In this document: positions 775-18,212 of the stretch, in pieces
Position numbering within the stretch: position 1 is the first letter of the stretch
Layout of the letters: every line of letters starts with the position of its first letter
From: Candidatus Woesearchaeota archaeon
Lineage (GTDB): Archaea; Nanobdellota; Nanobdellia; Woesearchaeales; GW2011-AR4
NCBI GenBank assembly: GCA_016185805.1
Contig: JACPMW010000003.1
Location: 1 to 39,798 of the forward strand
DNA length: 39,798 nucleotides
Reading direction: 5' to 3'
The notes under the pieces: model-generated
Database searches by the model: none
What the model was told of the DNA's origin: nothing
Seen by the model: the letters and a program-made list of their open reading frames with translations, nothing else
Position numbers and translations under genes: made by a program

Positions 775-960
775 TGCCGGTGAGGAGATTTGAACTCCCG
801 ACTTATGCCTTTCAGGATGTTGCCTTATGAGAGCATCACTCTAATTGCCACAACCTTTTGCGAAAAGCTTGACCAAAAGCGTTCCAGTGGGATATTCAGG
901 TGAAATCCCACGACATCTGTAGTCCTCTTGCAAAAGGCTACCAGGCTGAGTTACACCGGC
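775..960 (-). tRNA. tRNA(CAU) (elongator Met or Ile2) with two introns: about 97 nt in the D-loop and about 15 nt in the anticodon loop
   Basis: Minus-strand read: GCCGGTG-TA-ACTC-AGCCTGGTA-[97 nt]-GAGT-G-ATGCT-CTCATAA-[15 nt]-GGCAT-AAGTC-GGGAG-TTCAAAT-CTCCT-CACCGGC-A. It has a 7-bp acceptor and a 74-nt mature cloverleaf, with the anticodon at 829-827. Exon blocks are 960-939, 841-825 and 809-775; intron borders are good to within a few nt. Confidence 0.8.
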
Positions 961-1468: not shown

Positions 1469-2308
1469 CTACATTATTTGCAGGCTGTCTATCGGGCTTT
1501 TTGTGCCAATCATTTTGGGAGATGCAATATGAAGATATACCATTGTTGTTTCTGCGCTGCTGTGCCCGAGCAATGACTGGACTTCTGCAACGCTGCTTCC
1601 GTTCTCTATAAGGTGGGTTGAAAAGCTGTGCCGCAAAGTGTGCGGATGGGCATGCTTGGATAATTTGGCATGTTTCCGTGCATTTTTTATTACGGATCTT
1701 ACGGACGCTGTTGTAAGGTGGCCATTAAATCCCCTGAAAATATAAGAATCAGGTGACGTGCATTCTTTTGAAATGTATGAAGCTAGCTCTTCCTTGATGC
1801 TCTCTGCTATGACAAACATCCTGTCCTTGTTGCCCTTGCCGTGCCTCACCCACCCATAGCCATTTTTGATGTCAAGATTTTCCGGCTTAAGGTGAACAAG
1901 CTCGCTTACCCTTAGCCCGGCAGAATACATCAGCTTTGCCATAAGCTTGTGCTTAGGATTGCTTATTGAATTTATCAGCCTTGCAATTTCTTCTTTGGTT
2001 AAAACTATTGGCAGTGATTTAGGGGTTTTTGAGTATCTTATATTGACCATTAACCGCCGGTTTAAGACACTGCCATAAAAAAACTTCAATGCGTTTAAGT
2101 TCACATTAATTGTGTTGCCGCATGTGCCTTTCCCAATCATGATGTCAAGGTAGGACTTGACATCGGCTTTCTTGATTTCATTTGGCTCTTTTTTGCACCA
2201 ATTGAAGAATTTTCTGACGCAATACCTGTAAGTCCTTATTGTTTTGTGGCTTAATCCCCTTCTGAGCCCTTCTTTCCTTATTAATTCCGGAATGTCCATT
2301 TTAATCAC
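1469..2308 (-). CDS. xerA: Xer-type tyrosine site-specific recombinase
   Basis: 279 aa with the full R-K-H-R-H-Y catalytic set (GLRVSE, HGKGNKDR, HTLRHSF, LGHSS, MVYLH). There are 59 residues between KDR and HTLRH. The start is GTG 2308 or ATG 2299. Confidence 0.8.
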   Translation of the reverse strand: MIKMDIPELIRKEGLRRGLSHKTIRTYRYCVRKFFNWCKKEPNEIKKADVKSYLDIMIGKGTCGNTINVNLNALKFFYGSVLNRRLMVNIRYSKTPKSLPIVLTKEEIARLINSISNPKHKLMAKLMYSAGLRVSELVHLKPENLDIKNGYGWVRHGKGNKDRMFVIAESIKEELASYISKECTSPDSYIFRGFNGHLTTASVRSVIKNARKHAKLSKHAHPHTLRHSFSTHLIENGSSVAEVQSLLGHSSAETTMVYLHIASPKMIGTKSPIDSLQIM

Positions 2309-2330
2309 ATTAATCCATGATGCATCTAAG

Positions 2331-2369
2331 GTTTAAATAATTCACGCGAAGATGTCCAGTGTCCAGTGG
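2331..2369 (-). promoter_or_regulatory. Promoter-proximal element copy A: two CTGGACA units plus a TATA-like box, upstream of the recombinase gene
   Basis: The reverse complement reads CCACTGGACACTGGACATCTTCGCGTGAATTATTTAAAC. The TATA-like box (2340-2331) lies 23-32 nt from the recombinase start codons. Two similar copies sit at 14759-14797 and 23010-23041. Confidence 0.45.
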
Positions 2370-2471
2370 TTATTTACGATATTGAAAAGAATTGATATCA
2401 GCCAATTTCCCAACTCCGCAATGAATACAGAAAAACAGGTTATGGCCAATCAAATCCAAGGCATTTAAGCC

Positions 2472-2506
2472 CTATAACCCTAAAATCTAAAGACTTTAGG
2501 TTATAT
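2472..2506. repeat. Imperfect inverted repeat CTATAACC(C)TAAA / TTTAGGTTATAT with one extrahelical C
   Basis: Read directly: 2472-2484 pairs with 2495-2506. It is followed by a second GTTATAAG unit at 2510-2517. Confidence 0.5.
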
Positions 2507-2810
2507 ACCGTTATAAGCCACCTTATCATCGATAACCTCCTCAAAATTTCTCGATGAAAATTCTAAAAACCATCAAAGCTTTTTAGAACTAAAGATTTTT
2601 TCAGGCAAAAAAATCGCATAAAATTATCAACAGTTATGATTATCTTAGAAAATATTAAATAGTTCTAATGTTTTTATTATAATTTATGTGGAGATTAGGC
2701 TTATAGCCCTTATAGCTTGCCTTACTCCATTGGTTCTCCATAAGTTCTTTGAATTTATGGTGAACATGAAAATGGAAACAAAAATCATTACAGCTGGAGT
2801 GACCCTGGCC

Positions 2811-2898
2811 GTGGAGACTCTGATGTAGTGAGGCAGCAATAATCTATAAGTTGAAATTCACGGTCAAGGGTTTGGGGGTTCAAATCCCCCTCTCCACT
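2811..2898 (+). tRNA. tRNA-like gene or pseudo-tRNA, class-II-like, best fold gives anticodon CUA
   Basis: Perfect 7-bp acceptor (GTGGAGA / TCTCCAC) and a canonical T-arm (GGGGG-TTCAAAT-CCCCC). The long variable region can form a 6-bp stem (AAATTC / GGGTTT). The anticodon stem CAATA/AGTTG has one A-A mismatch, its loop is ATCTATA, there is no nt 26 and the D-stem is weak. Confidence 0.35.
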
Positions 2899-2984
2899 CT
2901 TTGTAGAATGTAAATTGTTGATAATTTTCTGTTTTCTTCGAGAAATCAAGGGATAAATCCGAAAATGCTAATTGTTACTGCCTT

Positions 2985-3051
2985 CGTTTAACGCCATAAA
3001 GAAAAACTAAAGACGACAAAATTGAAAACTTTGTCTAACAAGCGTTAAACG
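2985..3051 (+). repeat. Junction J0: 10-bp inverted repeat enclosing a bulged hairpin and core site TGTCTAA|CAAGCG|TTAAACG (3032-3051)
   Basis: CGTTTAACGC (2985-2994) pairs with GCGTTAAACG (3042-3051). The inner stem is AGAC(GAC)AAA / TTTGTCT. The core matches the J1-J5 pattern. Confidence 0.55.
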
Positions 3052-3143
3052 GTTCGCTTACGCTCTCCCAAATTTTTGATTACTTTGAACGGGGGGGTTT
3101 CTAGAAAACTTTATAATCTTGCTTATAAGCACTATAGGTCAAT

Positions 3144-4718
3144 ATGGTAAATTGTGCAAAATGTGGAGAGAAAATAGGATTATTTCAAAAAAAATATGAT
3201 TATGAGAATAAGCACGGAAATACTATAAAGTATTGCTCAAAATGTAATGAAGAATATAAAAAACAAGAAGCTGAAACGAAACGAAAGAAAATCGAAAAAC
3301 AAAAATTAGAAGAGCAAAAAGCACAGGAAAAATATTCACAGGAAATTTCTGAGATTTGTAAAAAATATTTAACAACTAAAGATTATGATTTCAGAGGAAT
3401 AATCTCGGGAATATACAAAAATAAAGAATTATATGGGCTAGTTGAGAAGGAAGATATAGATTTCTTAAAACAACAGTTTATAAAATTGTATCAAAAAACT
3501 CAAGAAAGTTCTCCTTCAAGTTCTAAGGAATATGACGAAGTGATGTCTTTAGAGAACACCTATAATAATGCCTTGCAATTTATTCAGGACTTAGAAAAGG
3601 TTAAGAAAATATCAGAAAAAAAAGGAATTAAATCAGACTATATCAAAATAATCAAACTCATGGCAGATATTGTGAATGAAGATGAGAAAAAAAGGAGGGA
3701 AAAAATTGCAGTTGCTGCGTACCAACGGATTTCTAAAATTACGAGTGATAAAAAACAAATAATTAAGGAATTTCTCAAAATCCTCCAACCGGAAGATGAA
3801 ATGACTATTGAATTTTTATTTGATAAATTTGGGCTTTCTTACACTCATGAGGAAGTAACGAAACTACTAACAGAATGTATTGAAGACGCAGAAATTGAAG
3901 ATTTTGAAGAAAATATTGGTACAACACAAAAAAAACAAATAGGGGATTTTGAAAATCTTAGTGGACATCAATTTGAAAATTACCTAAAAGAAATTTTCTC
4001 TATTTTTGGCTATCAGGTTATTAGAACAAAACTAAGTGGCGACCAAGGGGCAGATTTAATTATAAAGAAGAACAACGAAAAAACCGTTGTTCAAGCAAAA
4101 AAGTATTCTGGTGATGTAACTAATAAAGCCGTCCAAGAAGTTGTTGCATCAAAAGAGCATTATGGTGCAAATAAAGCAATGGTTGTAACTACTGGAAATT
4201 TTACTAAAAGTGCCATTGAATTAGCAAGAAGCAATAAGGTTGAGCTTTGGGATAAAAATAAACTTAAGAATGTAGTATCGGAAATTAATAGTTCTTTGGG
4301 CACGAAGAAGGGATCACATACTCAAACCATGAGTTTAGACAGGGATTTTTTAGACAAGGATTCATTCCCAATAGTTTGTCCCTTATGCAGTTCAGAAATT
4401 GGAGATTCTTTAGATGGTTGCCCTAGAAAAAATGAAGTTCAAGAACTGTGTTGTCTTAAATGTACGGGTAGACTGACAATAAGTCTACCAGAAGAAGCTT
4501 ATTCTTGTCTAGGTTGCAAGCAAACATTTGACACAGTTAAAGAAAGGATTGAGCACTCAAAGTCATGCAAAAAACTGAAAGAAAGAGAGTTTAAATGCAA
4601 GTCCTGCCAAAAAGAATTTACTTTGGATGACTCGGAGTTTACTGAACTAAAAATAAAAGGAAAAATAAATATTGAATGCCCAAAATGTAAAAAAGACAAC
4701 TCTGTAGGTATTAAGTAA
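3144..4718 (+). CDS. Multidomain protein: N-terminal zinc ribbon, coiled coil, Mrr-like restriction-endonuclease catalytic domain, C-terminal cluster of zinc ribbons and C2H2-like fingers
   Basis: N-terminus has CAKCG...CSKCN. The Mrr-cat-like block reads GHQFENYLKEIFSIFGYQV...GDQGADLII...VVQAKKY...AMVVTTGNFTKSA. The C-terminus has CPLCS, CLKC, CLGCKQTFDTVKERIEHSKSC, CKSC and CPKC. Confidence 0.6.
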   Translation: MVNCAKCGEKIGLFQKKYDYENKHGNTIKYCSKCNEEYKKQEAETKRKKIEKQKLEEQKAQEKYSQEISEICKKYLTTKDYDFRGIISGIYKNKELYGLVEKEDIDFLKQQFIKLYQKTQESSPSSSKEYDEVMSLENTYNNALQFIQDLEKVKKISEKKGIKSDYIKIIKLMADIVNEDEKKRREKIAVAAYQRISKITSDKKQIIKEFLKILQPEDEMTIEFLFDKFGLSYTHEEVTKLLTECIEDAEIEDFEENIGTTQKKQIGDFENLSGHQFENYLKEIFSIFGYQVIRTKLSGDQGADLIIKKNNEKTVVQAKKYSGDVTNKAVQEVVASKEHYGANKAMVVTTGNFTKSAIELARSNKVELWDKNKLKNVVSEINSSLGTKKGSHTQTMSLDRDFLDKDSFPIVCPLCSSEIGDSLDGCPRKNEVQELCCLKCTGRLTISLPEEAYSCLGCKQTFDTVKERIEHSKSCKKLKEREFKCKSCQKEFTLDDSEFTELKIKGKINIECPKCKKDNSVGIK

Positions 4719-4736
4719 ATATGAAACTTATTAAAC

Positions 4737-5216
4737 ATGGACGAAAATCAAGAAAAAGCAAATAAAATTTTATGGGAATACCTACATCAAAATAAAAAAC
4801 CTATCAAATTAGATAGTAATGCAATGAAAATATTGGATATTGCTGAGAGTAATCATGAATATTATGAGTATATTCCTGATAAACTTTTTAGTTTATTACT
4901 TGAAAAAGATATAAAAATTGAAAAATTAGATTCGGAATTTAAACACTTATTCGAAAAAGAGCGAAAGTCAAATTATATTTCTGGATGGAAATCTATCTTA
5001 ATTCAAAAAGAAGTACATGCTAAGTTTCTAATAGCTCAATTTATCCATGAATACGCGCATCATAAATTTAAGATTGGTGAATGGAATAAAGATAATTATA
5101 AGCATCCTAAAACTCCTGGTGAGAGTAAAGAAGAGGATACTTGTAACATATTGAGTTGTGAATACGCTGAAATGAATGGATTTGGTAAGGAATATTCTAA
5201 ATTGATAGGACTTTAG
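4737..5216 (+). CDS. Hypothetical protein with HExxH motif (possible ImmA/IrrE-like zinc peptidase)
   Basis: 159 aa. FIHEYAHHKF contains HEYAH. It starts 19 nt after the Mrr-like gene on the same strand. Confidence 0.3.
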   Translation: MDENQEKANKILWEYLHQNKKPIKLDSNAMKILDIAESNHEYYEYIPDKLFSLLLEKDIKIEKLDSEFKHLFEKERKSNYISGWKSILIQKEVHAKFLIAQFIHEYAHHKFKIGEWNKDNYKHPKTPGESKEEDTCNILSCEYAEMNGFGKEYSKLIGL

Positions 5217-5394
5217 AGATAACTTATTTTTCTTAATGTAATGCTTCGCTCATTTGATAAAATGGAACTCCCCCAGTCCTGCGGACATATACTCTGCTTA
5301 CGCAGAAATCTATTATAACTAAAGTAATCAAAAACTACGGCAGTAACGCATTTTCGGTGGCTTAAAAACACCGCTCGGCATCAAAGCCTCGCTA

Positions 5395-5414
5395 CGTATA
5401 ACAAGAATTAAAAT
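5395..5414 (+). repeat. Junction core J1: CGTATAA|CAAGAA|TTAAAAT
   Basis: Read directly. It is preceded by stems CTGCG/CGCAG (5279-5305) and CGGTG/CACCG (5355-5373). Confidence 0.55.
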
Positions 5415-5444
5415 CAATTGAGAAAAATCCCCCTATTGCCCACA

Positions 5445-6020
5445 CTACTTAATACTTCTTAAGATATTTAATAGAATTTCTCCAACCTTAACATAATCAA
5501 TCATTCCACTTCTTGACATCTTTACACCGTGTACTGCTTTATTTCGAACTTTAGAGAGATAATCACTCATAGCTCTAATACTAATTAGTTTTTCACCATC
5601 CACCTTTTTCTTTTTCAATAATCTCTGTAATTCATTCTCAATCAAGAATGATAATTTAATTATGGAGTAATTGTAATCTTTAAAATTCAATTGATTATCT
5701 AATTCTTTCTTTATCTTTTCTTCATTAATTTTAAGTTTTTTTACTTTTGATTTATATTTAGATAATTGGTTCTTTAGTTCTTCTATTTCTTTTCTCCTTC
5801 TTTTCATTGCCCTACCATATAAAGAGAATTGCATGGCAAGAATTAATCCTAACATAACGGGGATAATTATCTCAAAAATTGACGTTGCTGGCATTACAAA
5901 CTCAATCTTTTTATCAAAAAGAAAAACAAAAATTAAAATGGAGTAAATTATTATAGTTATAGGTAGTACTATGATTAAAAATTCTTTCTTTTTCATTATA
6001 AATCTTGGGAAGGAAATCAT
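5445..6020 (-). CDS. Membrane-anchored coiled-coil protein with a C-terminal region resembling DUF4145 (RNKAVHG)
   Basis: 191 aa with two or three N-terminal hydrophobic helices and a K/E-rich coiled coil. The C-terminus reads LSKVRNKAVHG. Confidence 0.35.
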   Translation of the reverse strand: MISFPRFIMKKKEFLIIVLPITIIIYSILIFVFLFDKKIEFVMPATSIFEIIIPVMLGLILAMQFSLYGRAMKRRRKEIEELKNQLSKYKSKVKKLKINEEKIKKELDNQLNFKDYNYSIIKLSFLIENELQRLLKKKKVDGEKLISIRAMSDYLSKVRNKAVHGVKMSRSGMIDYVKVGEILLNILRSIK

Positions 6021-6223
6021 TGTTCTCCTCCCCCTTCAAATTGTTCCATTTTTTTGCCTGCTTCAATCCCTCCTAATCCAATAATTGTTGAATAGATTAT
6101 GAAATAAAACATTTCTGGTAAGGTTTCATGCATTACAAGAGCGACAGCTTGAAGTATAACGAAACAGACAACGGTGATTCCAATAATCCATGCTGAGGCT
6201 GATGAACTTATGTATGGTGCCAT
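6017..6223 (-). CDS. Small two-TM membrane protein, translationally coupled to the downstream gene
   Basis: 68 aa and hydrophobic. Its stop overlaps the next start (ATGA at 6017-6020 on the minus strand). Confidence 0.4.
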   Translation of the reverse strand: MAPYISSSASAWIIGITVVCFVILQAVALVMHETLPEMFYFIIYSTIIGLGGIEAGKKMEQFEGGGEQ

Positions 6224-6295
6224 TTATAAACTAAATATTTAATGTTCTATATAAATATGTTGGATGTGGGCTTATGTAGGGGATTTTTCTCAACT

Positions 6296-6354
6296 CTGCG
6301 GACGCAGGTTTCCAGAACTTTGTAACTGGAAACGATTTTAACAAGGGTTATACG
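6296..6354 (+). repeat. Junction J2: palindrome, 8-bp hairpin and core ATTTTAA|CAAGGG|TTATACG (6335-6354)
   Basis: Palindrome CTGCG-GA-CGCAG at 6296-6307. Hairpin GTTTCCAG-AACTTTGTAA-CTGGAAAC at 6308-6333. Confidence 0.6.
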
Positions 6355-6415
6355 CAATTTTTGCGAACGCCTAAACGAGATAGGGCTTTGGCATTAGCGA
6401 TTAAGAATATAGAAG

Positions 6416-6802
6416 TCAGTGAACTCTCTCTTCTAATAAACGTTGAGATATTTCTCCTGGTGCTTGGTAATAAAGAGTCACTTGAGTACTCACAAAAACG
6501 TCTGTCCTCTTTATGCGAACACCATTATCAAATTCTGTTGTGGTATCCTTAACTGGAATAGGGAAACCTTGACTGGGAGTTGGTTGTCGTTTTGTGTATC
6601 CTGTGATTCTACAACCAATTGGGTAAATAGTATAATCACCTTCTCCACCATGTATAAACAATTTCGCTTTGTCTGGCACTATACCAGTTAGTTCTATACC
6701 TTCTATAAGCTCTGTAATCTCCTTGAACTCACGCATAGATTGTCCTACATCAACTACCCTCCTTACAAAAGGGACGCTTTCAGTTACTCTAATGGTATTC
6801 AT
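6416..6802 (-). CDS. Hypothetical protein (cassette 3 cargo)
   Basis: 128-aa ORF with no recognisable motif. It is flanked by two perfect 14-bp inverted repeat pairs. Confidence 0.4.
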   Translation of the reverse strand: MNTIRVTESVPFVRRVVDVGQSMREFKEITELIEGIELTGIVPDKAKLFIHGGEGDYTIYPIGCRITGYTKRQPTPSQGFPIPVKDTTTEFDNGVRIKRTDVFVSTQVTLYYQAPGEISQRLLEERVH

Positions 6803-6952
6803 TTGTTGTTCAAGATATAGAACAAAGAAGTGTTTATAAAATTATGCCAAAGCCCTAGAATATTGTCTTGATGTATCGCTTCGCTCTTTTGATAGACGGC
6901 GTTCGCAAAAACTTTGCTTTGCAACCCCATTGCATTCTCCTTTCAGTCGGGG

Positions 6953-6972
6953 CGTATAACAGGAATTAAATG
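6953..6972 (+). repeat. Junction core J3: CGTATAA|CAGGAA|TTAAATG
   Basis: Read directly. It is preceded by small stems TTGC/GCAA and CCCC/GGGG (6925-6952). Confidence 0.55.
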
Positions 6973-7034
6973 CAATTAAATTTAAGTTTCCAATGATAGG
7001 GGAATTCTCTCTGATTTGTAAATAGCTAACAAAA

Positions 7035-7592
7035 ATGGAAAGAGTTATTAATAAAGAAATTAATATTAAGGAATTAATGAATAAAATTAAAAACAATTTA
7101 ATGTATTTAGGCTTTGCTTTTTTTGTTAGTTATGCTGCTGCATCCCCACAATTGGTGTATCCGGGTGGTGAAATCATAAGCAATTTTTATTTTGTTTTTG
7201 TTATAATATTTATTTTTTCTTTTTTAGCTATAAGATTTATTATTTTAAATAAAGACCTACCAATAGGACAAAATAAAATCTTAAAAATTACTTCTGCCAC
7301 ATCTTTTGTTTTTACATTATTTTTTATTTATCTCACTTATACTGAAAATACAAGCATACACATCCTAATAGGAACAAAAAATTTAGGCAACATAAATGGA
7401 TTTTACATATTAGCAACATTCATTTTAATTATAATGATTCATATTATCTTAAATTTACAAAAACACATCAAATTATCCAAAATTTTACCGTGTCTATACC
7501 CTTACTTCAAAATGTTTGGTTTGTCTATCATATTACTATTTATTAATATAATAGTATACACAATACTATCGTTTAGTATTTATTGTTGTTAA
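7035..7592 (+). CDS. Polytopic membrane protein (cassette 4 cargo)
   Basis: 185 aa, very AT-rich, with about five hydrophobic helices. Confidence 0.45.
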   Translation: MERVINKEINIKELMNKIKNNLMYLGFAFFVSYAAASPQLVYPGGEIISNFYFVFVIIFIFSFLAIRFIILNKDLPIGQNKILKITSATSFVFTLFFIYLTYTENTSIHILIGTKNLGNINGFYILATFILIIMIHIILNLQKHIKLSKILPCLYPYFKMFGLSIILLFINIIVYTILSFSIYCC

Positions 7593-7676
7593 TACTCCTA
7601 GATTAACTATCTAAAATATCACAAGAATTTTATAAACAGCAAAATTTATAAACTAGCACCCCCATAATCCAATATT

Positions 7677-7826
7677 ATGAAAACAGTAACCATATCAGAA
7701 TTAGAATACAAAACCCTGAAAAAGAAAGCTGAGTTGGATGAAGACTTATTAATGAAACTAATAAGGGGTCTGGAAGATATAAAAGCAGGAAGAATAAAGC
7801 CTTGGAAAAGCAAGTTTACCGATTAA
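7677..7826 (+). CDS. Small ORF (49 aa), possible antitoxin partner of the RelE-like gene
   Basis: Translation: MKTVTISELEYKTLKKKAELDEDLLMKLIRGLEDIKAGRIKPWKSKFTD. It is not in the ORF track (under 60 aa). It converges on the toxin gene with an 11-nt 3' overlap. Confidence 0.35.
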   Translation: MKTVTISELEYKTLKKKAELDEDLLMKLIRGLEDIKAGRIKPWKSKFTD

Positions 7827-8127
7827 GTTTTTTTCTTATTTCTTCCTTGTAATAAGGCATTAAGAGCTTTATTTTGTCAATTGCTTTCTGCTGGTCTTTT
7901 TTGCCGCTTATTGCAACAACAAACACAACTACATATTCATCATAAATCAAATAATAAAAGCGGTAATTTCTTACTTTCTTCTCCCTCAAAAATTTATAGC
8001 CTAGTGGCTTGCCAACATGAGGATTTGATTCTAACTGCTTAATTTCATTGTCAATCATTCTTTGAATAGAAGTGTCTAACTTTTCAAAATCTTTATCAAA
8101 TTCCTCAGTTGTAAATATCCTAAACAT
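7816..8127 (-). CDS. RelE/ParE-family toxin
   Basis: The pattern FRIFTTEEFDKDFEKL...IKQLESNPHVGKPLGYKFLREKKVRNYRFYYLIYDEYVVVFVVAISGKKD is typical of RelE/ParE. The ATG at 8127 is preferred over the track's TTG at 8145. Confidence 0.7.
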   Translation of the reverse strand: MFRIFTTEEFDKDFEKLDTSIQRMIDNEIKQLESNPHVGKPLGYKFLREKKVRNYRFYYLIYDEYVVVFVVAISGKKDQQKAIDKIKLLMPYYKEEIRKKLNR

Positions 8128-8249
8128 AAAAACAATAACAACCAATGCCTATTTAAACATTTGTTTTGAATTATATAATTGACTAAGAGAGAATTCCCTA
8201 AACTATAGTCTCGCTACGCTCGAATTTATTGGGAAACTTAAATTTAACT

Positions 8250-8309
8250 TTGCGGAACGCAACTTTTGAGAACTTCGTAGCTCAAAAGGCATTTAACAAG
8301 GGTTAAACT
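8250..8309 (+). repeat. Junction J4: palindrome, 8-bp hairpin and core CATTTAA|CAAGGG|TTAAACT (8290-8309)
   Basis: Palindrome TTGCG-GAA-CGCAA at 8250-8262. Hairpin CTTTTGAG-AACTTCGTAG-CTCAAAAG at 8263-8288. Confidence 0.6.
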
Positions 8310-8451
8310 CAATAATTTTTAGTGGCTAAACATAGATAGGGGGACATTTCTAACGACTAAAAAGAACTGTGGGTTTGAAATGAAAGTGAAAAACATCTGA
8401 TTGAAAACTAGAAAAATATTTAAAGTTGTTAAATCTAATAATAGCGAGATT

Positions 8452-9762
8452 ATGAAAAAAGAGGCATTAATCACTTTAATAATATTTTTTGCTATTTTCA
8501 TTTCTGGCTGCGGCTCTGGGCCGGGTGCCTTGCCTGCAGCACTGTCAGGGAAGGATTATTCTTATGATATACCTGCTCCATCTGGAGGCAAAGGGCCATT
8601 CAGTTGTGTTGCAACGCCTGATTCAGTGATTCCAACAGGCCTTAGTTTCAATGGATGCACTTTAACTGGAACTGCTCCAACACTTTTAGGAGTATCTGAG
8701 AAAGTATTTTCCTTTAAGTTCTCTATTACGGGTGCTGATGGAAAGTCCTATGGGCCTTTTGATGCTACACTGCCGGTTAGTGTAGGCCCTCCTGAATTTT
8801 TACCACCAGAATTGCCAGAAGCTGGTGTTGGCCAGGCGTATTCATTCAGTTTCTGCGATAATCCTACCGCATTAGATTGTGTAAGCAGTTCTTCAATTTC
8901 AGGCGGCGCTGGCGCTCCTTATACTTTCTCTGCTACTGGCCTGCCGCTGGGGATTTTCCTCAGCCCTAATGGGGAGTTAAGCGGAAAGATACCAGAAGAG
9001 GCGCAAGAAGGAGACAAAACATTCAATGTATGTGTGATAGACTCGGCACGTGTTGAAGACTGCAAGGATGTTAAGCTTAACATGAAGAAAAATGTTGCAC
9101 TGGGATACAAATTAAGCCTGAAATCAAGATTAGACTATAGTGGCGAAGTGGTTAACTTTAATTTTTGCGGCGGGTCTGCTAGGGAAAAGGGATCACTAAC
9201 GTGGGAAATCGATAATGTTGTAACACTTACACAGCCATATGCAGGAGGCTATTTCACTTCAGATGAATATGATGCAAAGGTAGATGAGTACGGCTACACC
9301 AGTGCAGATAATTTTAGGCATTTGCAAGTGCCTGTGAAAGCATCTGGCAGCGCTTCAACTTCACATGATTTCTGCGGTCGCAGCCAAATTGAATGCAAGG
9401 CAGATTCTTTCAGCGCTAGTTATGACCTTAAAATCCCAATAGAACTTAAATTAGACGAGTCGGGGCTTAGTGTATATATTGACTATGCGTATATCAAAGA
9501 TAATCCTGATCTTGAAGCAGGAGATATATCCAAACTGAATTGCGATAGTCCAGGTGCTTCAGAGTACATCCTTAAAAAAATGGCAATAGGATCACCTTTT
9601 GTCCGCGAGGGCGGTTATAGAAAGGCAGTTTTCGATACCAATGGTGGCACACTGACAGGGCAATACGAAGATAACAACCCTTACACTTATGCTTTTGGCG
9701 CAGCTCCAGGAAGAACATCAAGGCAACTGGCATGGTCGCTAACCGTGGAGCGGGTTAAGTAA
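8452..9762 (+). CDS. Secreted lipoprotein with putative Ig-like repeats (cassette 5 cargo)
   Basis: The ATG at 8452 gives MKKEALITLIIFFAIFISGCGSG, a signal peptide with a lipobox Cys. Repeated motifs PTGLSFNGCTLTGTAP and GLPLGIFLSPNGELSGKIP follow. The track start at 8401 is a TTG. Confidence 0.6.
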   Translation: MKKEALITLIIFFAIFISGCGSGPGALPAALSGKDYSYDIPAPSGGKGPFSCVATPDSVIPTGLSFNGCTLTGTAPTLLGVSEKVFSFKFSITGADGKSYGPFDATLPVSVGPPEFLPPELPEAGVGQAYSFSFCDNPTALDCVSSSSISGGAGAPYTFSATGLPLGIFLSPNGELSGKIPEEAQEGDKTFNVCVIDSARVEDCKDVKLNMKKNVALGYKLSLKSRLDYSGEVVNFNFCGGSAREKGSLTWEIDNVVTLTQPYAGGYFTSDEYDAKVDEYGYTSADNFRHLQVPVKASGSASTSHDFCGRSQIECKADSFSASYDLKIPIELKLDESGLSVYIDYAYIKDNPDLEAGDISKLNCDSPGASEYILKKMAIGSPFVREGGYRKAVFDTNGGTLTGQYEDNNPYTYAFGAAPGRTSRQLAWSLTVERVK

Positions 9763-9991
9763 GCACTGGCAGATTTTTAATTCTCAACATAATGTTTATA
9801 TAAACACCTTTTTTCTCTTTCTATATTTACAACAGAAGCTCGCCAGGAATTGAAAAAGCAGGGATAGCAAATGGACAAACACCCGCCCCCTACAACTAAC
9901 TAACGACTAAATTACGAAATGTTCCCCTTGATACTTGTTCTTTATTGCTCACCTTGTTCGCCTGATTGAACACGAGCCACTAAAAATTACT

Positions 9992-10050
9992 TTGCGGACG
10001 CAATTTTCCCACACTTGCGTATGGGAAAAGGATTTAACAGGAATTAAAAT
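9992..10050 (+). repeat. Junction J5: palindrome, 8-bp hairpin and core GATTTAA|CAGGAA|TTAAAAT (10031-10050)
   Basis: Palindrome TTGCG-GA-CGCAA at 9992-10003. Hairpin TTTTCCCA-CACTTGCGTA-TGGGAAAA at 10004-10029. The right side AATTAAAATCAATT is identical to J1. Confidence 0.6.
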
Positions 10051-10061
10051 CAATTTTCTAC

Positions 10062-10475
10062 TTATTGCTTCGGAGGCTCAATACCGAGCTGTTTCCACAA
10101 GCTTAAATTGTCCTCAATGCCCCAGCGCTCGATTATTTTGTTGTTTTTAATGCGTATGATGTCCATCACTGACATGGAAATCTTTTTCCCCGTTGGACTA
10201 ATTCCCATAAATTCCCCTTTCTGCGTGCCGCTAAACACGAATCTGGTTGCGACCTTGTCATTTTCGGCAATCATGTCCTCGATTTTTATCCTGGCATCCG
10301 GGAATGTTTTTCGTAATTCTTTAAAAGAATTCCTTATTTCATCAATTCCTGCCTCTTTTCCGTAAAAGCTGCGGTCGACAAAGTTTTCATCAAAAATTTC
10401 ATCTATAGCGGACAAATTGCCCTTGTTAAATACCTCCTCATAAAAGCGATGCATCAGTTCCTTATTCTTTTCCAT
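10062..10475 (-). CDS. SnoaL-like (ester/polyketide cyclase fold) protein
   Basis: 137 aa. N-terminus reads NKELMHRFYEEVFNKGNLSAIDEIFDENFVD and the C-terminus reads IIERWGIEDNLSLWKQLG. Confidence 0.65.
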   Translation of the reverse strand: MEKNKELMHRFYEEVFNKGNLSAIDEIFDENFVDRSFYGKEAGIDEIRNSFKELRKTFPDARIKIEDMIAENDKVATRFVFSGTQKGEFMGISPTGKKISMSVMDIIRIKNNKIIERWGIEDNLSLWKQLGIEPPKQ

Positions 10476-10476
10476 T

Positions 10477-11282
10477 TTAAACCTCGAAATATTTTATATC
10501 TAAATTTTCAACATCAATAATGGCACAATTCACTTTGTCTTCGGGATAGCTGCTTCCAACATTGATGCATATCGTATTTCCAATCTTGTCTTTCCATGAG
10601 CCGCTCATCTGCGGGCTTTCATGTATGTGCCCGTGCAGCGTTAAAAATGGCTGCTCTTTCTCTATGAAATTTTCACTGACTTGCTTCCGACATGGTTGTT
10701 TTTTAATGTTATATCCAGATTCGTGTTATAAGGTGGTGCATGAATCACATAAATTGTCTTTTTTGGATTGCTTAATTTTTTCAGATTATTCAAATCCTCC
10801 TCAATTGTTCCGCTCTCTTTTTCAGCGCTTCTTATCTCTTCACTAAACAATTGCAGCGGCCCTTTATCATTTTCAAAATCGGGCTTTTCCCAGTCTTTCA
10901 GCCTGAATGGGGTTGGATTGACAAAACTATATCCTGCAATGTTGATATTTTTATTGAATTTCATTGATTTATTATGTATTGATTTCAAGATTCTTGAATC
11001 CTCCAGCACATTGAGGTTTGCCTTGAAATCATCATTGCCCATTATTGCATAGATTTCAGTGTTTTTATTCTTTTCCTTGAACTTCTTGAACAATGGTAGC
11101 ATGATGTTTTCAATGAACTTTTTTTGGATTTTGACTCTTTCTTCAACAGAATTTCCTCCTTTCGGGCATAAGTCACCGCCAATGACAACAGCGCTGCATT
11201 TTTCATCCTCAGCTTTCTTCAACAATCTTCTGTAGAATTCCTCGTTTCCATGAAGGTCTGCTGAGTAGATTAGCTTGAACAT
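10477..11282 (-). pseudogene. Metallophosphoesterase interrupted by a 1-nt frameshift in a homopolymer
   Basis: The N-terminal part carries YSADLHGN, VIGGDL and GNDD and ends at TAG 10662-10664. The C-terminal part (ENFIEKEQPFLTLHGHIHE...DIKYFEV, stop 10477-10479) continues in another frame. One extra A in the A4 run (plus-strand T run 10670-10673) restores the frame. Confidence 0.7.
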
Positions 11283-11284
11283 TT

Positions 11285-11881
11285 TTAAAATTTAATAAAC
11301 TTTTTAAAATCAGATTTTAATTGCTTACTGTTTTTGAAGACAATTCCTGCCATGCCGACTGATTTAGCTACATCAACAAAGTCTTTTACATCATCAATAA
11401 AAATGCATTCTTTTGGCTTGACTTTAAGTTTTTTTGCAGCAAGAAAGAAGATTTTTTTATTGTTCTTAGTCAGACCTACTTTATGCGATAAAATTACTGC
11501 ATCAAAAAGATTGTAGGTGCCTCTTTTTTTGTTAATTTTTTCATGATATGCTATCGAGTTAGATACGATTCCTATTTTATATTTCTTTTTTAATTTTTGA
11601 GCTATAGCAAGAACATCATGCTTTACCTTCGTCAAATTCTCATAACCCAGTCTCCATAGATTTTTGGGGATTTTTTTAATATCTTTTTTATTTAATTTTG
11701 CTATTCTCTTCCAAAAAACTTTTTCAGAGATTAAGTTTTTGCACAAAGGAATTGCTTCTATATTTATTTCACGCCAAAATTTCTTCTTATTTTTGGGCCT
11801 GAATATTTTATTCAATCTTTCAAACCAAAGCCTCTGGTCAACAATAACACCGCCGCTGTCAAATAGAATTGCTTTTATCAT
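11285..11881 (-). CDS. HAD-superfamily hydrolase
   Basis: The start at ATG 11881 gives MIKAILFDSGGVIV. A later block reads FIDDVKDFVDVAKSVGMAGIVF. The longer track ORF runs into the tRNA-Ala gene. Confidence 0.6.
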   Translation of the reverse strand: MIKAILFDSGGVIVDQRLWFERLNKIFRPKNKKKFWREINIEAIPLCKNLISEKVFWKRIAKLNKKDIKKIPKNLWRLGYENLTKVKHDVLAIAQKLKKKYKIGIVSNSIAYHEKINKKRGTYNLFDAVILSHKVGLTKNNKKIFFLAAKKLKVKPKECIFIDDVKDFVDVAKSVGMAGIVFKNSKQLKSDFKKFIKF

Positions 11882-11895
11882 TTTTAATAAAAAAA

Positions 11896-12002
11896 TGGAC
11901 CGGCCGAGACTTGCAATGCGAAGCGCTGCCCGCTTTCCGCAATTTGAACTCGGAGCCTCACCCATGCCATGGGCGCATTATGCCAGGTTTAACTACCGGC
12001 CC
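11896..12002 (-). tRNA. tRNA-Ala(GGC) with a 33-nt intron at the T-loop/T-stem boundary
   Basis: Minus-strand read: GGGCCGG-TA-GTTA-AACCTGGCA-TAAT-G-CGCCC-ATGGCAT-GGGTG-AGGCT-CCGAG-TTCAAAT-[33 nt]-CTCGG-CCGGTCC-A. The G3:U70 pair is present. The intron is about 11941-11909. Confidence 0.85.
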
Positions 12003-12082
12003 ATTAATTTGCAAGAAATCATGATGGTTTAAAAGATTTTCTTAAAAAACATCAAAACAGCTTAAGATTAAAAAATTTCAAT

Positions 12083-12300
12083 CCCGAGAGCGACTTCTGA
12101 AAGTATTGGAGTTTGAAGTGAACCGCTTTTGATTTCATTATTAAATAAATAGGCGAGGCCCGACATGCGAGTGAGCTTCGTTTCACTCGCTCATATTCCA
12201 CTCGATTTGGCAATAGGGGCAGTGGCATAAGCGAGCGAAAGGCGAGCTTTCGCATCTCACTCGAGCACAAATTATTGTGAGTGAAGAACAGATTGAAGAA
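12083..12300 (+). ncRNA. Structured intergenic element, copy 1 of 3 (candidate ncRNA)
   Basis: The 5' hairpin is GAGAGCG-ACTTC...GAAGT-GAAC-CGCTTTT followed by a T-run. GC-rich hairpins follow: GCGAGTGA/TCACTCGC (12167-12190) and GCGAAAG/CTTTCGC (12235-12253). It shares sequence blocks with 28187-28358. Confidence 0.5.
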
Positions 12301-12320
12301 TGAGATTTAACAAAAAAATC

Positions 12321-12536
12321 TTAATTCTTTGCAGCGAGCTTTACATCCCCCTCATGTATCGTCTTTCTTCCTGCGTGCTTTGATATATCTGCCGCTTTCT
12401 TGGAGATCTTTAATGCAATGTCTGTCAATACTTCGGCAAAAGCATCAACTCCATCCTGTGAAACTCTTTTAGCCCCTGCCTTGACAAGGATTCTTGCGAC
12501 AGATGCCTTGGGTATTGTAGAAGTTTTTCTTCCCAT
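12321..12536 (-). CDS. Archaeal histone (HMf-like histone fold)
   Basis: 71 aa. Blocks PKASVARILVKAGAKRVSQDGVDAFAEVL and HAGRKTIHEGDVKLA. Confidence 0.85.
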   Translation of the reverse strand: MGRKTSTIPKASVARILVKAGAKRVSQDGVDAFAEVLTDIALKISKKAADISKHAGRKTIHEGDVKLAAKN

Positions 12537-12579
12537 CGAAAATCACGATTTTCGGGGTTTCGGAAATCTTTGATTTCCG
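12537..12579. promoter_or_regulatory. Two related 8-bp-arm palindromes immediately upstream of the histone start codon
   Basis: CGAAAATC-AC-GATTTTCG at 12537-12554 and CGGAAATC-TTT-GATTTCCG at 12561-12579. Confidence 0.4.
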
Positions 12580-12701
12580 CAACCATAAATCCCCATTAAT
12601 TAAGATATAAGGGAGAAAATTCAAGAAGAACCCCTTAGTCTTTGTGTATCCCTGAAACCTAACATAAGTTATTTAAATAACTTTCGATTTTAGGAATTTT
12701 C

Positions 12702-14387: not shown

Positions 14388-14532
14388 TCAAAAAATTTGT
14401 CCAAAGTGCAAAAGCAAAAATATTGAAGCAGATTTTTCAGCCCATTCTTTCGCTCAAGGCTCAGTTTTCAACAAATATAAGTGCAATAAATGCGGCTATT
14501 CAGGAATGTTTTTTCCTGAAGTTAAAGAATAA
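14380..14532 (+). CDS. Small zinc-ribbon protein (50 aa)
   Basis: Translation begins MVNQKICPKCKSKN and continues to YKCNKCGYSG. Its ATG overlaps the gltX stop (ATGGTTAA). Confidence 0.5.
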   Translation: MVNQKICPKCKSKNIEADFSAHSFAQGSVFNKYKCNKCGYSGMFFPEVKE

Positions 14533-14537
14533 TAATG

Positions 14538-14653
14538 CGCCGCGGCTGGGAGTCTCACCCAGAAAAGGCGTCCTTTTATAGGATTTGAACCCAGATGCTG
14601 TTTCCAGCAGAAGGGTCTGAACCTTCCGCCCCACCAAGTTGGGCGACCGCGGC
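14538..14653 (-). tRNA. tRNA-Leu(CAG) with a 32-nt intron at the T-loop/T-stem boundary
   Basis: Minus-strand read: GCCGCGG-TC-GCCC-AACTTGGTG-GGGC-G-GAAGG-TTCAGAC-CCTTC-TGCTGGAAACAGCAT-CTGGG-TTCAAAT-[32 nt]-CCCAG-CCGCGGC-G. The intron is about 14582-14551 and contains the hairpin AAAAGG-ACG-CCTTTT. Confidence 0.85.
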
Positions 14654-14690
14654 ATGAAAAGATTTATATATATGTTTCCCAATACTATGA

Positions 14691-14730
14691 TTGAAGGGTC
14701 TGAAGCTTCTGTTCCGCCAGATTGGGCGGC
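14691..14730 (-). pseudogene. Degenerate copy of the tRNA-Leu D-arm and anticodon arm, 37 nt upstream of the intact gene
   Basis: The reverse complement GCCGCCCAATCTGGCGGAACAGAAGCTTCAGACCCTTCAA aligns with tRNA-Leu GCCCAACTTGG...GCGGAAGGTTCAGACCCTTC. Twelve nt (TTCAGACCCTTC) are identical. Confidence 0.5.
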
Positions 14731-14758
14731 TTTTTATTTTTAATGTGAATATTTTATT

Positions 14759-14797
14759 CTTTATAAATCTCACATGAGAATGTCCAGTGTCCATTGC
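14759..14797 (-). promoter_or_regulatory. Promoter-proximal element copy C (CTGGACA units plus TATA-like box) facing the tRNA-Leu locus
   Basis: The reverse complement reads GCAATGGACACTGGACATTCTCATGTGAGATTTATAAAG. The TATA-like box lies about 28 nt from the tRNA-Leu fragment start at 14730. Confidence 0.4.
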
Positions 14798-14865
14798 TAC
14801 TCTAAAATATATGTTAGAGAATAAAAAATCAGAAAGTATTTAAGCATAATAAAAAAAATTAGGAT

Positions 14866-15048
14866 ATGACAAAATCCGTTATTGTAAAATCCCAAGTGAA
14901 AGATTTGGCAAAACTTGATGGAAAGGAATTGAGCGTTGCAGAAGAGTTCTACAAGGCATTGGAGGAAAAAGTCAGGAAAGACATTGAAAATGCGTGCAAG
15001 AGGGCAAAGCAGAATTCCAGAAACACAATAATGGCAAGGGACTTATGA
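14866..15048 (+). CDS. Small histone-fold-like protein (DUF1931-like)
   Basis: 60 aa. VKSQVKDLAK...ELSVAEEFYKALEEKVRKDIENACKRAKQNSRNTIMARDL. Confidence 0.45.
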   Translation: MTKSVIVKSQVKDLAKLDGKELSVAEEFYKALEEKVRKDIENACKRAKQNSRNTIMARDL

Positions 15049-15531: not shown

Positions 15532-15649
15532 TTTTCTGTTAATAGTCTTGCTATGTTTTTCTATAAGCAAGCGAAATGTTTTATTTTATTGTTTTCCATT
15601 CCTCTTGGCGCATTACTTAATAAATTAAAAAAATCTCAAAAATTAAAAA

Positions 15650-16222: not shown

Positions 16223-16379
16223 CAGCCTCTTTTTTACGAATAAACTAATCTATTTTTTAAACAGCTTATTTCAAATAGAAAAATAGAAGTATATAAAGAT
16301 TTTGATTTGAAAAATTTATTTCTCCTTGAAATCTTCCATTACATCATTCAGGTTTATTGTTTGGAATTTTGGTAACATT

Positions 16380-16691: not shown

Positions 16692-16823
16692 TTTTTAACC
16701 TTCATTCATATTTTGTAGTTTTTATCTCTTGCTTTTAGATTCAAAAGCCAGAAAAAATCGGCCTTTTAGGGATAATGATTAGTGAAAAGATAAACGATTT
16801 CGAGATTCTGATTTTGTTTAGTA

Positions 16824-18211: not shown

Positions 18212-18212
18212 T

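Follow-up and report, generated by a model that had tools for sequence, protein, structure and literature searches.

In integrons, a tyrosine recombinase gene lies divergent from a tandem cassette array, and cassettes enter at an adjoining primary site. Under the classical boundary rule, a cassette begins with bases that pair with R'' of its own site, and R' is a hybrid. Recombinase-less elements (IMEX) integrate in tandem at bacterial dif; TLC, CTX and RS1 accumulate in this way at Vibrio dif, and the CTX phage integrates as a folded single strand. In Acinetobacter, small gene modules are bounded by Xer-type pdif sites that alternate in orientation and keep conserved XerC and XerD arms. Characterised archaea have a single dif, which does not adjoin xerA (Cortez et al. 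2010; review PMC8371274). Archaeal integrons are described, as are attC clusters of Nanoarchaeota, for which the published archaeal survey found no integrase; bacterial IntI1 is able to use archaeal attCs (Ghaly et al. 2022, PMC9668308).

The chromosome of a woesearchaeote (DPANN) probably carries an integron-like gene-cassette array between 2.5 and 10.05 kb of the window (the whole analysed stretch, 39,798 nucleotides), with a XerA-family recombinase gene and an attI-like site adjoining it (Table 1). Six junctions of the form N5TAA-CARSNN-TTAN5 delimit the units, and the exact motif TAAC-ARG-NR-TTA occurs six times in the window, on the plus strand only (3036, 5399, 6339, 6957, 8294, 10035). 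J5 is the last recognisable junction because its right flank has no cognate partner in 10101-16000. An initial interpretation from the letters alone (the sequence-only reading) saw a mosaic in J5; its 14 nt at 10042-10055 are indeed identical to 5406-5419, but merely represent arm families like TTAAAATCAAT that recur in other arrays.

Table 1. Features of the array. IR2, second inverted repeat; arms, match between the 8-nt half-sites of one cassette.
Feature	Position	Strand	Description
Recombinase gene	1469-2308	-	XerA-family tyrosine recombinase, 279 aa; divergent from array; candidate cassette integrase
attI-like primary site	2494-2519	+	CTTTAGGTTATATACCG / TTATAAGCC; crossover between 2510 and 2511
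Segment attI to J0	2511-3044	+	Gene-less (no ORF of at least 60 aa), apparently decayed; start TTATAAGC and end TTGTCTAA match 5/8 only; tRNA-like piece ~2808-2897 (no tRNA call, no Rfam call)
J0	3031-3052	+	TTGTCTAA-CAAGCG-TTAAACGG; crossover between 3044 and 3045
Cassette 1	3045-5407	+	Mrr_cat restriction-endonuclease/zinc-ribbon protein (3144-4718); 159-aa ORF
Cassette 1 IR2	3073-3086, 5321-5334		Arms 6/8
J1	5394-5415	+	ACGTATAA-CAAGAA-TTAAAATC
Cassette 2	5408-6347	+	Two minus-strand ORFs: 191 aa (HEPN_MAE_28990 match below threshold) and 68 aa
Cassette 2 IR2	5418-5432, 6279-6293		Hairpin A 6296-6307, hairpin B 6308-6333; arms 8/8
J2	6334-6355	+	GATTTTAA-CAAGGG-TTATACGC
Cassette 3	6348-6965	+	Single 128-aa ORF, minus strand
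Cassette 3 IR2	6358-6371, 6898-6911		Arms 8/8
Cassette 3 third inverted repeat	6381-6393, 6845-6857
J3	6952-6973	+	GCGTATAA-CAGGAA-TTAAATGC
Cassette 4	6966-8302	+	ParE-family toxin gene (7816-8145, minus strand); 185-aa ORF (no Pfam match)
Cassette 4 IR2	6976-6989, 8234-8247		Hairpin A 8250-8262, hairpin B 8263-8288; arms 8/8
J4	8289-8310	+	GCATTTAA-CAAGGG-TTAAACTC
Cassette 5	8303-10043	+	He_PIG (Ig-like) protein, 453 aa
Cassette 5 IR2	8313-8327, 9975-9989		Hairpin A 9992-10003, hairpin B 10004-10029; arms 6/8
J5	10030-10054	+	GGATTTAA-CAGGAA-TTAAAATCAAT; last recognisable junction

In each cassette the 8 nt preceding the last 6 nt are the reverse complement of the first 8 nt (6/8 in two cassettes), and the two arms of one junction match at only 4-6 of 8 positions. 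Both patterns had been described in the sequence-only reading, whose half-site coordinates and 8-mers are all correct. Every arm shares TTA/TAA, so the background match is already 4-7/8. Permuting the cassettes, as that reading proposed, nevertheless singles out the real order, whose 36/40 matches are the unique maximum of 120 (mean 30); at least three perfect pairs arise in 2 of the 120 orders. When junctions were called by motif alone in 83 related loci and the window, at least 4/5 outer bases were complementary in 24 of 36 consecutive pairs (67%) and all were in 16, compared with 7.8% and 2.4% of random right/left pairs. An exact reverse-complement 8-mer stands at the start of 34 of 46 metagenome cassettes, and most of the others match at 7/8. 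The complementarity extends beyond these 8-mers: all five window cassettes have another inverted repeat, perfect over 14-15 nt (local-alignment scores of 28-34 for cognate pairs versus at most 25 for non-cognate ones), which differs between cassettes around a constant TAA-N6-TTA core. The half-site complementarity is genuine and shows where the mobile gene cassettes of this integron-like array begin and end.

The position of the crossover can be read from relatives. The contigs L002 and L003 are identical apart from one 346-bp cassette, which is inserted at attI and begins and ends where predicted. A 13-nt repeat (TTAAATGCAATTG) accompanies the insertion, attI keeps its spacer unaltered and the cassette spacer lies at the cassette 3' end; the crossover therefore falls between spacer and TTA. 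The left half of attI is also kept in relatives, which diverge exactly after G/TTA into different first cassettes (L002, L006, L007, L008; the slash marks the crossover). Strand exchange had been placed inside the 6-nt spacer, but it occurs instead at the 3' edge (N/TTA), and the upstream cassette or attI retains the spacer. This is the bottom-strand ATT-N5-TAA/ position at which dif-type sites are cleaved. Such a crossover makes the left arm of a junction the inverse core R'' (~RYYYAAC) of the upstream cassette and the right arm the core R' (~G/TTRRRY) of the downstream one. A cassette unit then reads TTA-N5-(AAT)...N5-TAA-CARSNN, and its ends pair with each other and not with those of its neighbours, which accounts for the half-site pattern. 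The array thereby follows the boundary rule of classical integrons.

Cassette ends also recur next to other partners. L116 and L125 share an identical 756-bp cassette end with its CAGGAA but have different neighbours after it, and one att module type is present in more than 120 metagenome contigs with many different right-hand neighbours. In the metagenome set, spacer sequence correlates more with the right-hand than with the left-hand neighbour, which we provisionally attribute to long attC-type units. No excised cassette circles were found, and no circular form was observed directly. Together with the adjoining tyrosine recombinase gene and the conserved primary site upstream of it, the L002/L003 difference and the exchanged neighbours support the core of the sequence-only reading, namely circular cassettes, site-specific recombination and junctions that are chimeras of two cassettes' sites.

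The array is tied to its recombinase gene. It starts 203 nt upstream of the recombinase start, and about 45 of 83 loci have the attI consensus (A)CTTCG(Y)ATATAAAGnG/TTA-N5-AAT upstream of the gene, at a distance of roughly 130-630 nt and mostly of 130-300 nt. New cassettes enter at this site, as the L002/L003 insertion shows. On the array strand upstream of the gene, junction motifs have a density of 1.58 per 10 kb, compared with 0.03-0.16 per 10 kb elsewhere. Among the 47 loci that include 2 kb or more of this upstream sequence, 20 contain one junction or more. The layout of gene, site and array recurs in Woesearchaeota and other DPANN genomes.

The recombinase itself has a Pfam Phage_integrase domain (1.1e-39) and SAM-like N-terminal domains. 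Its top NCBIfam match is archaeal XerA NF040815 (218.8 bits, cut-off 220), while integron-integrase TIGR02249 matches in two stretches (189 bits, cut-off 265). It aligns continuously with the XerA structures 5HXY and 4A8E, whereas in place of the IntI-specific domain of VchIntIA (2A3V; residues 182-230, about 49 in all) it has about 5 residues. Judged by these alignments, it is an ordinary Xer-type enzyme without the IntI-specific domain and not an integron integrase. The window encodes no other integrase, and we infer that this Xer-type protein catalyses cassette recombination.

The window sites resemble dif in that R'' and R' are 6 nt apart, and no L''/L' boxes or bulged bases are present at the window junctions; they are dif-like simple sites that have no L''/L' hairpin. 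The symmetric 8-6-8 site proposed from the sequence holds as the core, but the second inverted repeat belongs to the full site too, as do hairpins A and B, just upstream of R'', in cassettes 2, 4 and 5. These hairpins are 95.4% paired, hairpin B has changes on both sides at 8/8 pairs, and compensatory cells number 81 versus 29 expected; the observed value is reached in 0/500 shuffles. After excision, the joint of the circle is predicted to adopt a compact four-way fold. Predicted cognate circular joints of cassettes 2-5 fold at -24 to -37 kcal/mol and all other joints at -6 to -19, because of the second inverted repeats and covarying hairpins (cassette 2, -37.2 versus -12.8 to -18.1 for the rest of its row; cassette 3, -24.6 versus -10.4 to -14.6; cassette 4, -31.2 versus -14.0 to -18.6; cassette 5, -24.0 versus -12.9 to -17.1). 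The joint of cassette 1 (-15.1 kcal/mol) is not distinct from non-cognate joints.

The recognised form is presumably a folded single strand or a cruciform; the non-Watson-Crick pairs (14 G.T versus 11 A.C) do not assign the folded strand. A single-stranded substrate would be unorthodox because the crossover in the predicted fold sits at the tip of the R-box hairpin, whereas in attC it lies between two duplex arms. A plain double-stranded dif-like reaction would fit the crossover geometry of the fold better, but it would leave the private inverted repeats and hairpins without explanation. Because the AAAGAG-type spacer of attI shows no homology to the CAGGAA-type spacer of the cassettes, only one strand pair would be exchanged; by analogy with IMEX and CTX, whose inverted repeats could likewise fold to build a site, this suggests resolution by replication, a parallel drawn in Escudero et al. 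2016.

The similarity to integrons extends beyond the divergent gene and its primary site. The crossover immediately precedes the TT of a core resembling GTTRRRY, each cassette begins with bases complementary to an RYYYAAC-like inverse core at its own 3' end, and the sites vary in sequence but keep their structure. The cargo includes toxin-antitoxin and defence genes, as in integrons; the Mrr-type nuclease and ParE toxin are typical of cassettes, and PF04471 is enriched among Nanoarchaeota cassettes (Ghaly 2022, PMC9668308). Related arrays also hold longer junctions of full attC architecture (R''-5nt-L''-variable-L'-5nt+bulge-R', with a covarying spacer stem), whose boxes have almost the same sequence as those of a published Nanoarchaeota attC, ACATAAC-AAATC-ATTCAACCGG...CCGGTTAATT-CATG-GTTATGG (PMC9668308). 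The window departs from integrons in its recombinase and 6-nt R''-R' gap, in the private inverted repeat that flanks the R box, in the two conserved hairpins of three cassettes, and in cassette ORFs that run in both orientations, unlike those of promoterless integron cassettes.

A different, less probable reading is that a housekeeping Xer is exploited as by IMEX. The recombinase would be the dimer resolvase XerA and the "attI" the chromosomal dif, at which recombinase-less cassettes pile up in tandem, with no dedicated cassette platform. The near-cut-off XerA score, sites with archaeal dif geometry (~11-nt inverted arms ending in TAA/TTA, a 6-nt spacer and a crossover at the spacer edge) and cassettes that encode no recombinase all favour it. 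The family is 55-93% identical across Woesearchaeota, as expected of a housekeeping Xer, so the cassettes might merely exploit it. However, characterised archaeal dif is neither multicopy nor close to xerA, whereas here many direct-repeat sites with cassette-specific central arm bases start beside the gene, always ~130-630 nt upstream and in fixed orientation. Gene, site and array relocate together between chromosomal contexts in close relatives, and related arrays have full attC-type hairpins with bulged bases, an integron hallmark. The units are small gene cassettes and not phages or islands as in IMEX; unlike pdif, the sites are all direct repeats that share a single arm type and differ in their centres. 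The sole difference from the integron-like reading is whether the enzyme also or primarily serves dimer resolution.

It is quite improbable that the array is an ordinary CALIN served in trans by a canonical IntI elsewhere, with the Xer-like gene incidental. The attC-like long junctions of relatives, the reported Nanoarchaeota attC clusters without IntI and the use of archaeal attCs by IntI1 (Ghaly et al. 2022, PMC9668308) would allow this, but arrays show a 10- to 50-fold enrichment immediately upstream of the gene, on one strand and from a conserved starting site. The window has no second integrase, the published survey found no IntI in any Nanoarchaeota genome, and IntI requires L boxes and bulged bases, which the window junctions lack. 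Independent transposons or MITEs inserted side by side are very improbable: each unit does have terminal inverted repeats of 8 nt and 14-15 nt, but there is no transposase or target-site duplication, the repeats differ between units around a constant core, and the same oriented 6-nt spacer recurs in one orientation from a conserved start beside a tyrosine recombinase. Chance resemblance of AT-rich, TTAA-containing half-sites, which could draw on the shared TTA/TAA and its high background, is refuted by the permutation, related-loci and second-inverted-repeat tests.

The array works like an integron, and what sets it outside that class is its integrase and, in this window, the structure of its attC sites. 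We found no published description of the link to a Xer-type integrase or of the short sites. A Xer-type enzyme beside an integron-like array bears on how integrons arose.

The motif TAAC-ARG-NR-TTA occurs exactly six times in the 39.8-kb window, always on the + strand and only at the six junctions (J0-J5; left arm, 6-nt spacer, right arm) located by the sequence-only reading. All are of the short form R''-6 nt-R' (inverse core and core), and no L'-spacer-R' pattern (L' being an inner attC box) is present anywhere in the window. Their spacers read CARSNN on the + strand and so have direct orientation throughout, which differs from pdif modules, where flanking Xer sites alternate in inverted orientation. 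The earlier reading had claimed that the two arms of one cassette (cognate arms, from the upstream and downstream junctions) are reverse complements. All of its tabulated 8-mers are correct on rechecking, with 6, 8, 8, 8 and 6 of 8 positions matching for cassettes 1 to 5, and the arms within a single junction match at only 4-6 of 8. The permutation of cassette order that it called for leaves the true order (36 of 40) as the sole best among 120 permutations (mean 30), and the identity that it noted between the right sides of J5 and J1 is exact. For the flank to the right of J5, a search gave no cognate partner. An assignment in which L' is the left arm, L'' is the beginning of the cassette and R'' belongs to the preceding junction was rejected; it suits J1/J2 alone (7/8, a coincidence), and the rest are at the 6/8 background. 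The arm pattern is the cassette-boundary rule of integrons, in which the crossover precedes the TT of the core and the first bases of a cassette pair with the inverse core of its own site.

An attI-like primary site is found in about 45 loci, mostly 130-300 nt upstream of the recombinase gene and up to ~630 nt upstream in L001 and L006. Its consensus is (A)CTTCG(Y)ATATAAAGnG/TTA-N5-AAT, where the slash marks the edge before TTA. With the window copy of this site included, the array starts at 2511 and not at 3036, and seven direct-repeat sites (attI and J0-J5) begin 203 nt from the recombinase gene. Close relatives share the left half of the site and then split exactly after G/TTA into different first cassettes (TTAAATGC in L002, TTAAAATC in L006, TTATACTC in L007 and TTAGTTTC in L008). 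As in integrons, attI lies upstream of a divergent integrase gene and cassettes enter there. In L001 and L006 a 62-aa minus-strand ORF is inserted between gene and site, which are 510-630 nt apart instead of ~200 nt. Two tRNA-like sequences occur in the window, and the att module of L088, a comparison locus, contains a T-arm-like GGGTTCGAATCCC; Rfam and ARAGORN give no matches in the array region.

Features of the window (+ or - strand; the slash marks the edge before TTA)
Feature	Position	Strand	Sequence or content
tRNA-like sequence	~775-960	-	acceptor GCCGGTG, T arm, long insert; no ARAGORN or Rfam call
Tyrosine recombinase	1469-2308	-	279 aa; Phage_integrase 1e-39
attI-like site	2494-2519		CTTTAGGTTATATACCG/TTATAAGCC
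attI-J0 segment	2511-3044		gene-less, decayed in appearance
tRNA-like sequence within attI-J0 segment	~2808-2897	+	GTGGAGA...GGGGGTTCAAATCCCCCTCTCCAC; no ARAGORN or Rfam call
J0 motif	3036	+	
J1 motif	5399	+	
J2 motif	6339	+	
J3 motif	6957	+	
J4 motif	8294	+	
J5 motif	10035	+	
Right side of J5, identical to 5406-5419 (J1)	10042-10055		AATTAAAATCAATT
SnoaL-like, metallophosphoesterase and HAD genes	10062-12270	-	between J5 and the histone-GluRS block
Recombinase-attI-array side of conserved block	1469-12000		
Histone-GluRS...CMK-FKBP-ftsZ block	12321-21643		
ORF with HTH and LAGLIDADG domains	23177-24346		end falls inside the start of the L11 gene
Ribosomal protein L11 gene	24339-25133		

Two loci from different samples, L002 and L003, record the movement of a cassette. 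They encode the same integrase protein and are identical over more than 1.5 kb save for one feature, a 346-bp cassette at the primary site of L003 that has a 69-aa zinc-ribbon ORF, its own arms and its own second inverted repeat (IR2). The 13-nt repeat TTAAATGCAATTG occurs on both flanks of this insertion. Because the attI-side spacer ATACTG is unaltered and the incoming cassette carries a CAGCGA spacer at its 3' end, the crossover is placed at or just right of the spacer/TTA edge, and the cognate-arm rule excludes positions further right. The proposal that junctions are chimeras thus stands in that the core at each is a hybrid of its neighbours, but the exchange falls at this edge and not inside the spacer. 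A 756-bp cassette end plus CAGGAA is likewise identical in L116 and L125, with divergence afterwards, and L137 and L206 behave in the same way across 1066 bp. A cassette therefore reads TTA-N5...N5-TAA-spacer. The bottom strand may be cut at ATT-N5-TAA/, which matches the archaeal dif geometry described as an 11-nt arm followed by the spacer (review PMC8371274).

Two other crossover positions were rejected. One after the right arm or in the internal loop of the fold (attC/CTX-type geometry) is incompatible with the non-cognate arms at every junction, and one at the left spacer edge (TAA/C) is contradicted by L002/L003 and by attI retaining its own spacer in all relatives. The mutual information of the spacer with its neighbours favours the right-hand one, a signal confounded by long units of the attC type, in which the initial 6 nt base-pair with the end of the same unit; for spacer ownership, only alignments across whole cassette ends are informative.

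We fetched 86 loci around recombinase homologues. The motif TAAC-N5-TT[AC]-N5-AAT is concentrated upstream of the gene, where the strand equivalent to window + has 1.58 per 10 kb, compared with 0.03-0.16 per 10 kb elsewhere. Of the 47 loci with 2 kb or more of upstream sequence, 20 contain at least one junction. Contig ends lie within 600 nt upstream of the recombinase start, about at attI, in 21 of 83 loci (among L007-L086), which suggests that assemblies break at a hypervariable, population-variable array. Consecutive motif-defined junction pairs have at least 4/5 complementary outer bases in 24 of 36 cases (random pairs, 7.8%), and all six pairs of L069 match at 7-8 of 8 positions. Close relatives differ in where the recombinase gene, attI and array are placed: next to ftsZ in L001-L005, next to EMC3/secY and ribosomal genes in L006 and, in the window, flanking the same histone-GluRS...CMK-FKBP-ftsZ block on its histone/GluRS side. 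From gene order, this module appears to have relocated as a whole. Recombinase homologues number in the thousands and, where named, are labelled Woesearchaeota or Nanoarchaeota. A DPANN-type recombinase with attI is also found in L041, L085, L008 and other 'Methanosarcinales' TPA assemblies; such contigs, labelled Aminicenantes bacterium, Methanoperedens or Methanosarcinales, are probably mis-binned.

Each window cassette contains IR2 as a perfect 14-15-nt inverted repeat, with one copy 2-20 nt in from the cassette start and the other ~40-60 nt in from the cassette end. In alignments of each cassette's first 120 nt with the reverse-complemented final 120 nt of all cassettes, the cognate pair has the top score in every row (28-34, compared with at most 25 for others). 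Two hairpins, A (YTGC-GGAC-GCAR) and B (an 8-bp stem with loop AACTTYGTAR), separate IR2 from the left arm in cassettes 2, 4 and 5. Folding 95 nt before a crossover with 45 nt after a crossover, in each of the 36 combinations, gives energies of -37.2, -24.6, -31.2 and -24.0 kcal/mol for the predicted circular joints of cassettes 2-5, and array and non-cognate joints all range from -5.9 to -18.6 kcal/mol. Cassette 1 is exceptional, with a circular joint (-15.1 kcal/mol) within the range of its own non-cognate combinations. The circular-joint fold is predicted to be a tight four-way junction formed by the IR2 stem, hairpins A and B, and the arm hairpin. Circle joints, each with matching cassette ends, would read GATTTTAA-CAAGGG-TTAAAATC, GCGTATAA-CAGGAA-TTATACGC, GCATTTAA-CAAGGG-TTAAATGC and GGATTTAA-CAGGAA-TTAAACTC. 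A search for circular or permuted cassettes gave no genuine case; its sole cognate-looking joint, in L088, was dismissed as two different cassettes with the same 30-nt start.

A pattern that fixes hairpin A, ACTT and TAAC and leaves the hairpin B stem free matches more than 120 metagenome contigs, and this hairpin-type (type-I) att module is absent from IMG/VR viral contigs. Among 45 distinct sequences, 95.4% of hairpin cells are paired and 8/8 pairs of hairpin B vary on both sides. There are 81 compensatory cells where 29 are expected (a value attained by 0 of 500 shuffles), and slid registers pair only 34-52%. This covariation indicates that the hairpins are under selection; wobble-pair counts give no indication of which strand folds. 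An exact reverse-complement 8-mer of the left arm directly precedes the IR2 partner in 34 of the 46 metagenome cassettes where that partner is locatable upstream. Metagenome cassettes span 146 to 4769 bp, and the integrase is present on only 3 of 120 contigs, which are mostly array interiors. Some hairpin B stems (L122, L139, L147, L152, L185 and others) combine the 5' half of one variant with the 3' half of another, as in GTTTCCAG...CCGAAAAC, and the loop AACTTCGTAA resembles both the N5TAA/C arm and the left arm of attI. These hybrid stems and the arm-like loop hint at occasional crossovers inside the loop.

Many junctions in relatives are long, with the form N5TAAC-AGGAA-(TTTAACGG...40-150 nt...CCGTTAAA)-TTCC-GA-T-G/TTA-N5-AAT. 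Covariation links the 6 nt that follow TAA to the bases preceding the crossover, with a 2-nt bulge left over (CAGGGC with GCCC-ga-TG, CAGCAC with GTGC-ga-TG, CACGAA with TTCG-ga-CG). The layout is R''-L''-variable-L'-R', as in the attC sites of integrons. Integrase-linked loci have 8 such sites and metagenome loci 58, and arrays beside the Xer-type gene contain both short and long junctions; the window itself lacks attC architecture with bulged bases. The box sequence is close to that of the Nanoarchaeota attC tested by Ghaly et al. 2022 (PMC9668308), ACATAAC-AAATC-ATTCAACCGG...CCGGTTAATT-CATG-GTTATGG. That study reported attC clusters in Nanoarchaeota with no integrase for them, and archaeal IntIs with the additional domain; none of our loci shares a contig accession prefix with the contigs it lists. 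In L116 and L125 one cassette occurs with and without the L''...L' unit behind the same CAGGAA, which suggests that the L''-side simple site can perhaps also act as a crossover site. Composite junctions N5TAA-CAGGAA-TTCCGATG/TTA (in L148, L161, L167, L184, L204 and others) equal a long attC-type site minus exactly the L''...L' core, at an AATT microhomology, and could derive from recombination or hairpin deletion.

The best NCBIfam model for the recombinase is archaeal XerA (NF040815; 218.8 bits, just below the cut-off of 220), and the integron-integrase model TIGR02249 matches only as two pieces (189 bits, cut-off 265). XerA proteins are the closest solved structures (4e-39 and 3e-37), with IntI4 nearly as close (1.5e-36). 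Recombinase residues 17-179 and 185-274 align with residues 16-181 and 231-318 of VchIntIA (2A3V), so ~49 IntI residues (182-230, the IntI-specific domain) are without a counterpart; alignments with the XerA structures 5HXY and 4A8E are unbroken. The window enzyme accordingly lacks the additional IntI domain around patch III. The cargo includes an Mrr-type nuclease, a ParE toxin, an Ig-like secreted protein, a 191-aa ORF with a sub-threshold HEPN match and several unknowns. Integron cassettes are mostly promoterless and share the orientation of a platform promoter (Pc), and here ORFs lie on both strands (+ in cassettes 1 and 5, - in 2 and 3, both in 4). SnoaL is a known cassette cargo, and the three genes right of J5 may therefore be decayed cassettes; no junction motifs are left among them.

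The system works like an integron: a divergent recombinase gene accompanies a primary site where cassettes insert, and the cassette recombination sites keep structure while varying in sequence. It differs in that the window integrase is Xer-type without the IntI domain and the window sites lack L boxes, being of the simple, dif-like kind. The Xer-type protein is the candidate catalyst of cassette recombination. Exchange of one strand pair only is suggested by the non-homology of the attI and cassette spacers. A folded strand or cruciform is a putative substrate, though a geometrically odd one because the arm hairpin would have the crossover at its tip. The geometry is more easily reconciled with an ordinary double-stranded reaction of the dif type, under which IR2 and the hairpins would lack an explanation.

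The main alternative, which we consider rather unlikely, is that the enzyme is a housekeeping XerA exploited by cassettes as it is by IMEX elements. The cassettes do encode no recombinase and occupy dif-like sites. However, the linkage of gene, site and array is constant and extends to an apparent joint relocation between genomes, which argues for a unit, and seven sites in direct repeat lie beside the gene, whereas archaeal dif is published as one site per chromosome, unlinked to xerA (review PMC8371274). Action in trans by a canonical IntI is poorly supported, and no second integrase exists elsewhere in the 39.8-kb window. Equally poorly supported are TIR transposons or MITEs, given that domain searches of the window found no transposase and that the units, for all their terminal repeats, abut via a constant oriented spacer with no duplications. 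The same holds for chance as the source of the arm matches.

The boldest reading, to which we give slightly less than even odds, would be a natural 'proto-integron', in which an Xer-type recombinase that lacks the IntI domain drives an entire cassette-capture platform throughout DPANN archaea, with simple sites resembling dif and, for some of the cassettes, complete attC hairpins. The origin of integrons from Xer-like recombinases is an open problem, on which a widespread natural system bears directly. Escudero et al. 2016 described a 'chicken-egg paradox', in which the IntI-specific domain and folded attC sites each presuppose the other; they held integrons to be workable in theory on double-stranded recombination alone and proposed Xer-exploiting elements as possible cassette ancestors. 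The window locus looks like such an Xer-run system. If the proto-integron reading is true, it would be a living intermediate of the kind they postulated between Xer/dif-exploiting elements and integrons, and a testable one, with an Xer-type enzyme beside both simple sites and attC-type hairpins. It would also explain archaeal attC clusters seen without integron integrases, for which this enzyme is a candidate recombinase. The private inverted repeats with their predicted four-way fold are a new structural element. In the literature searched, coverage of which is incomplete, we found neither the short sites nor the association of an Xer-type integrase with cassette arrays of archaea described. 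Because short junctions lack attC structure, tools based on attC models would probably miss most such arrays, and estimates of gene flow by cassettes among DPANN archaea would then be too low.
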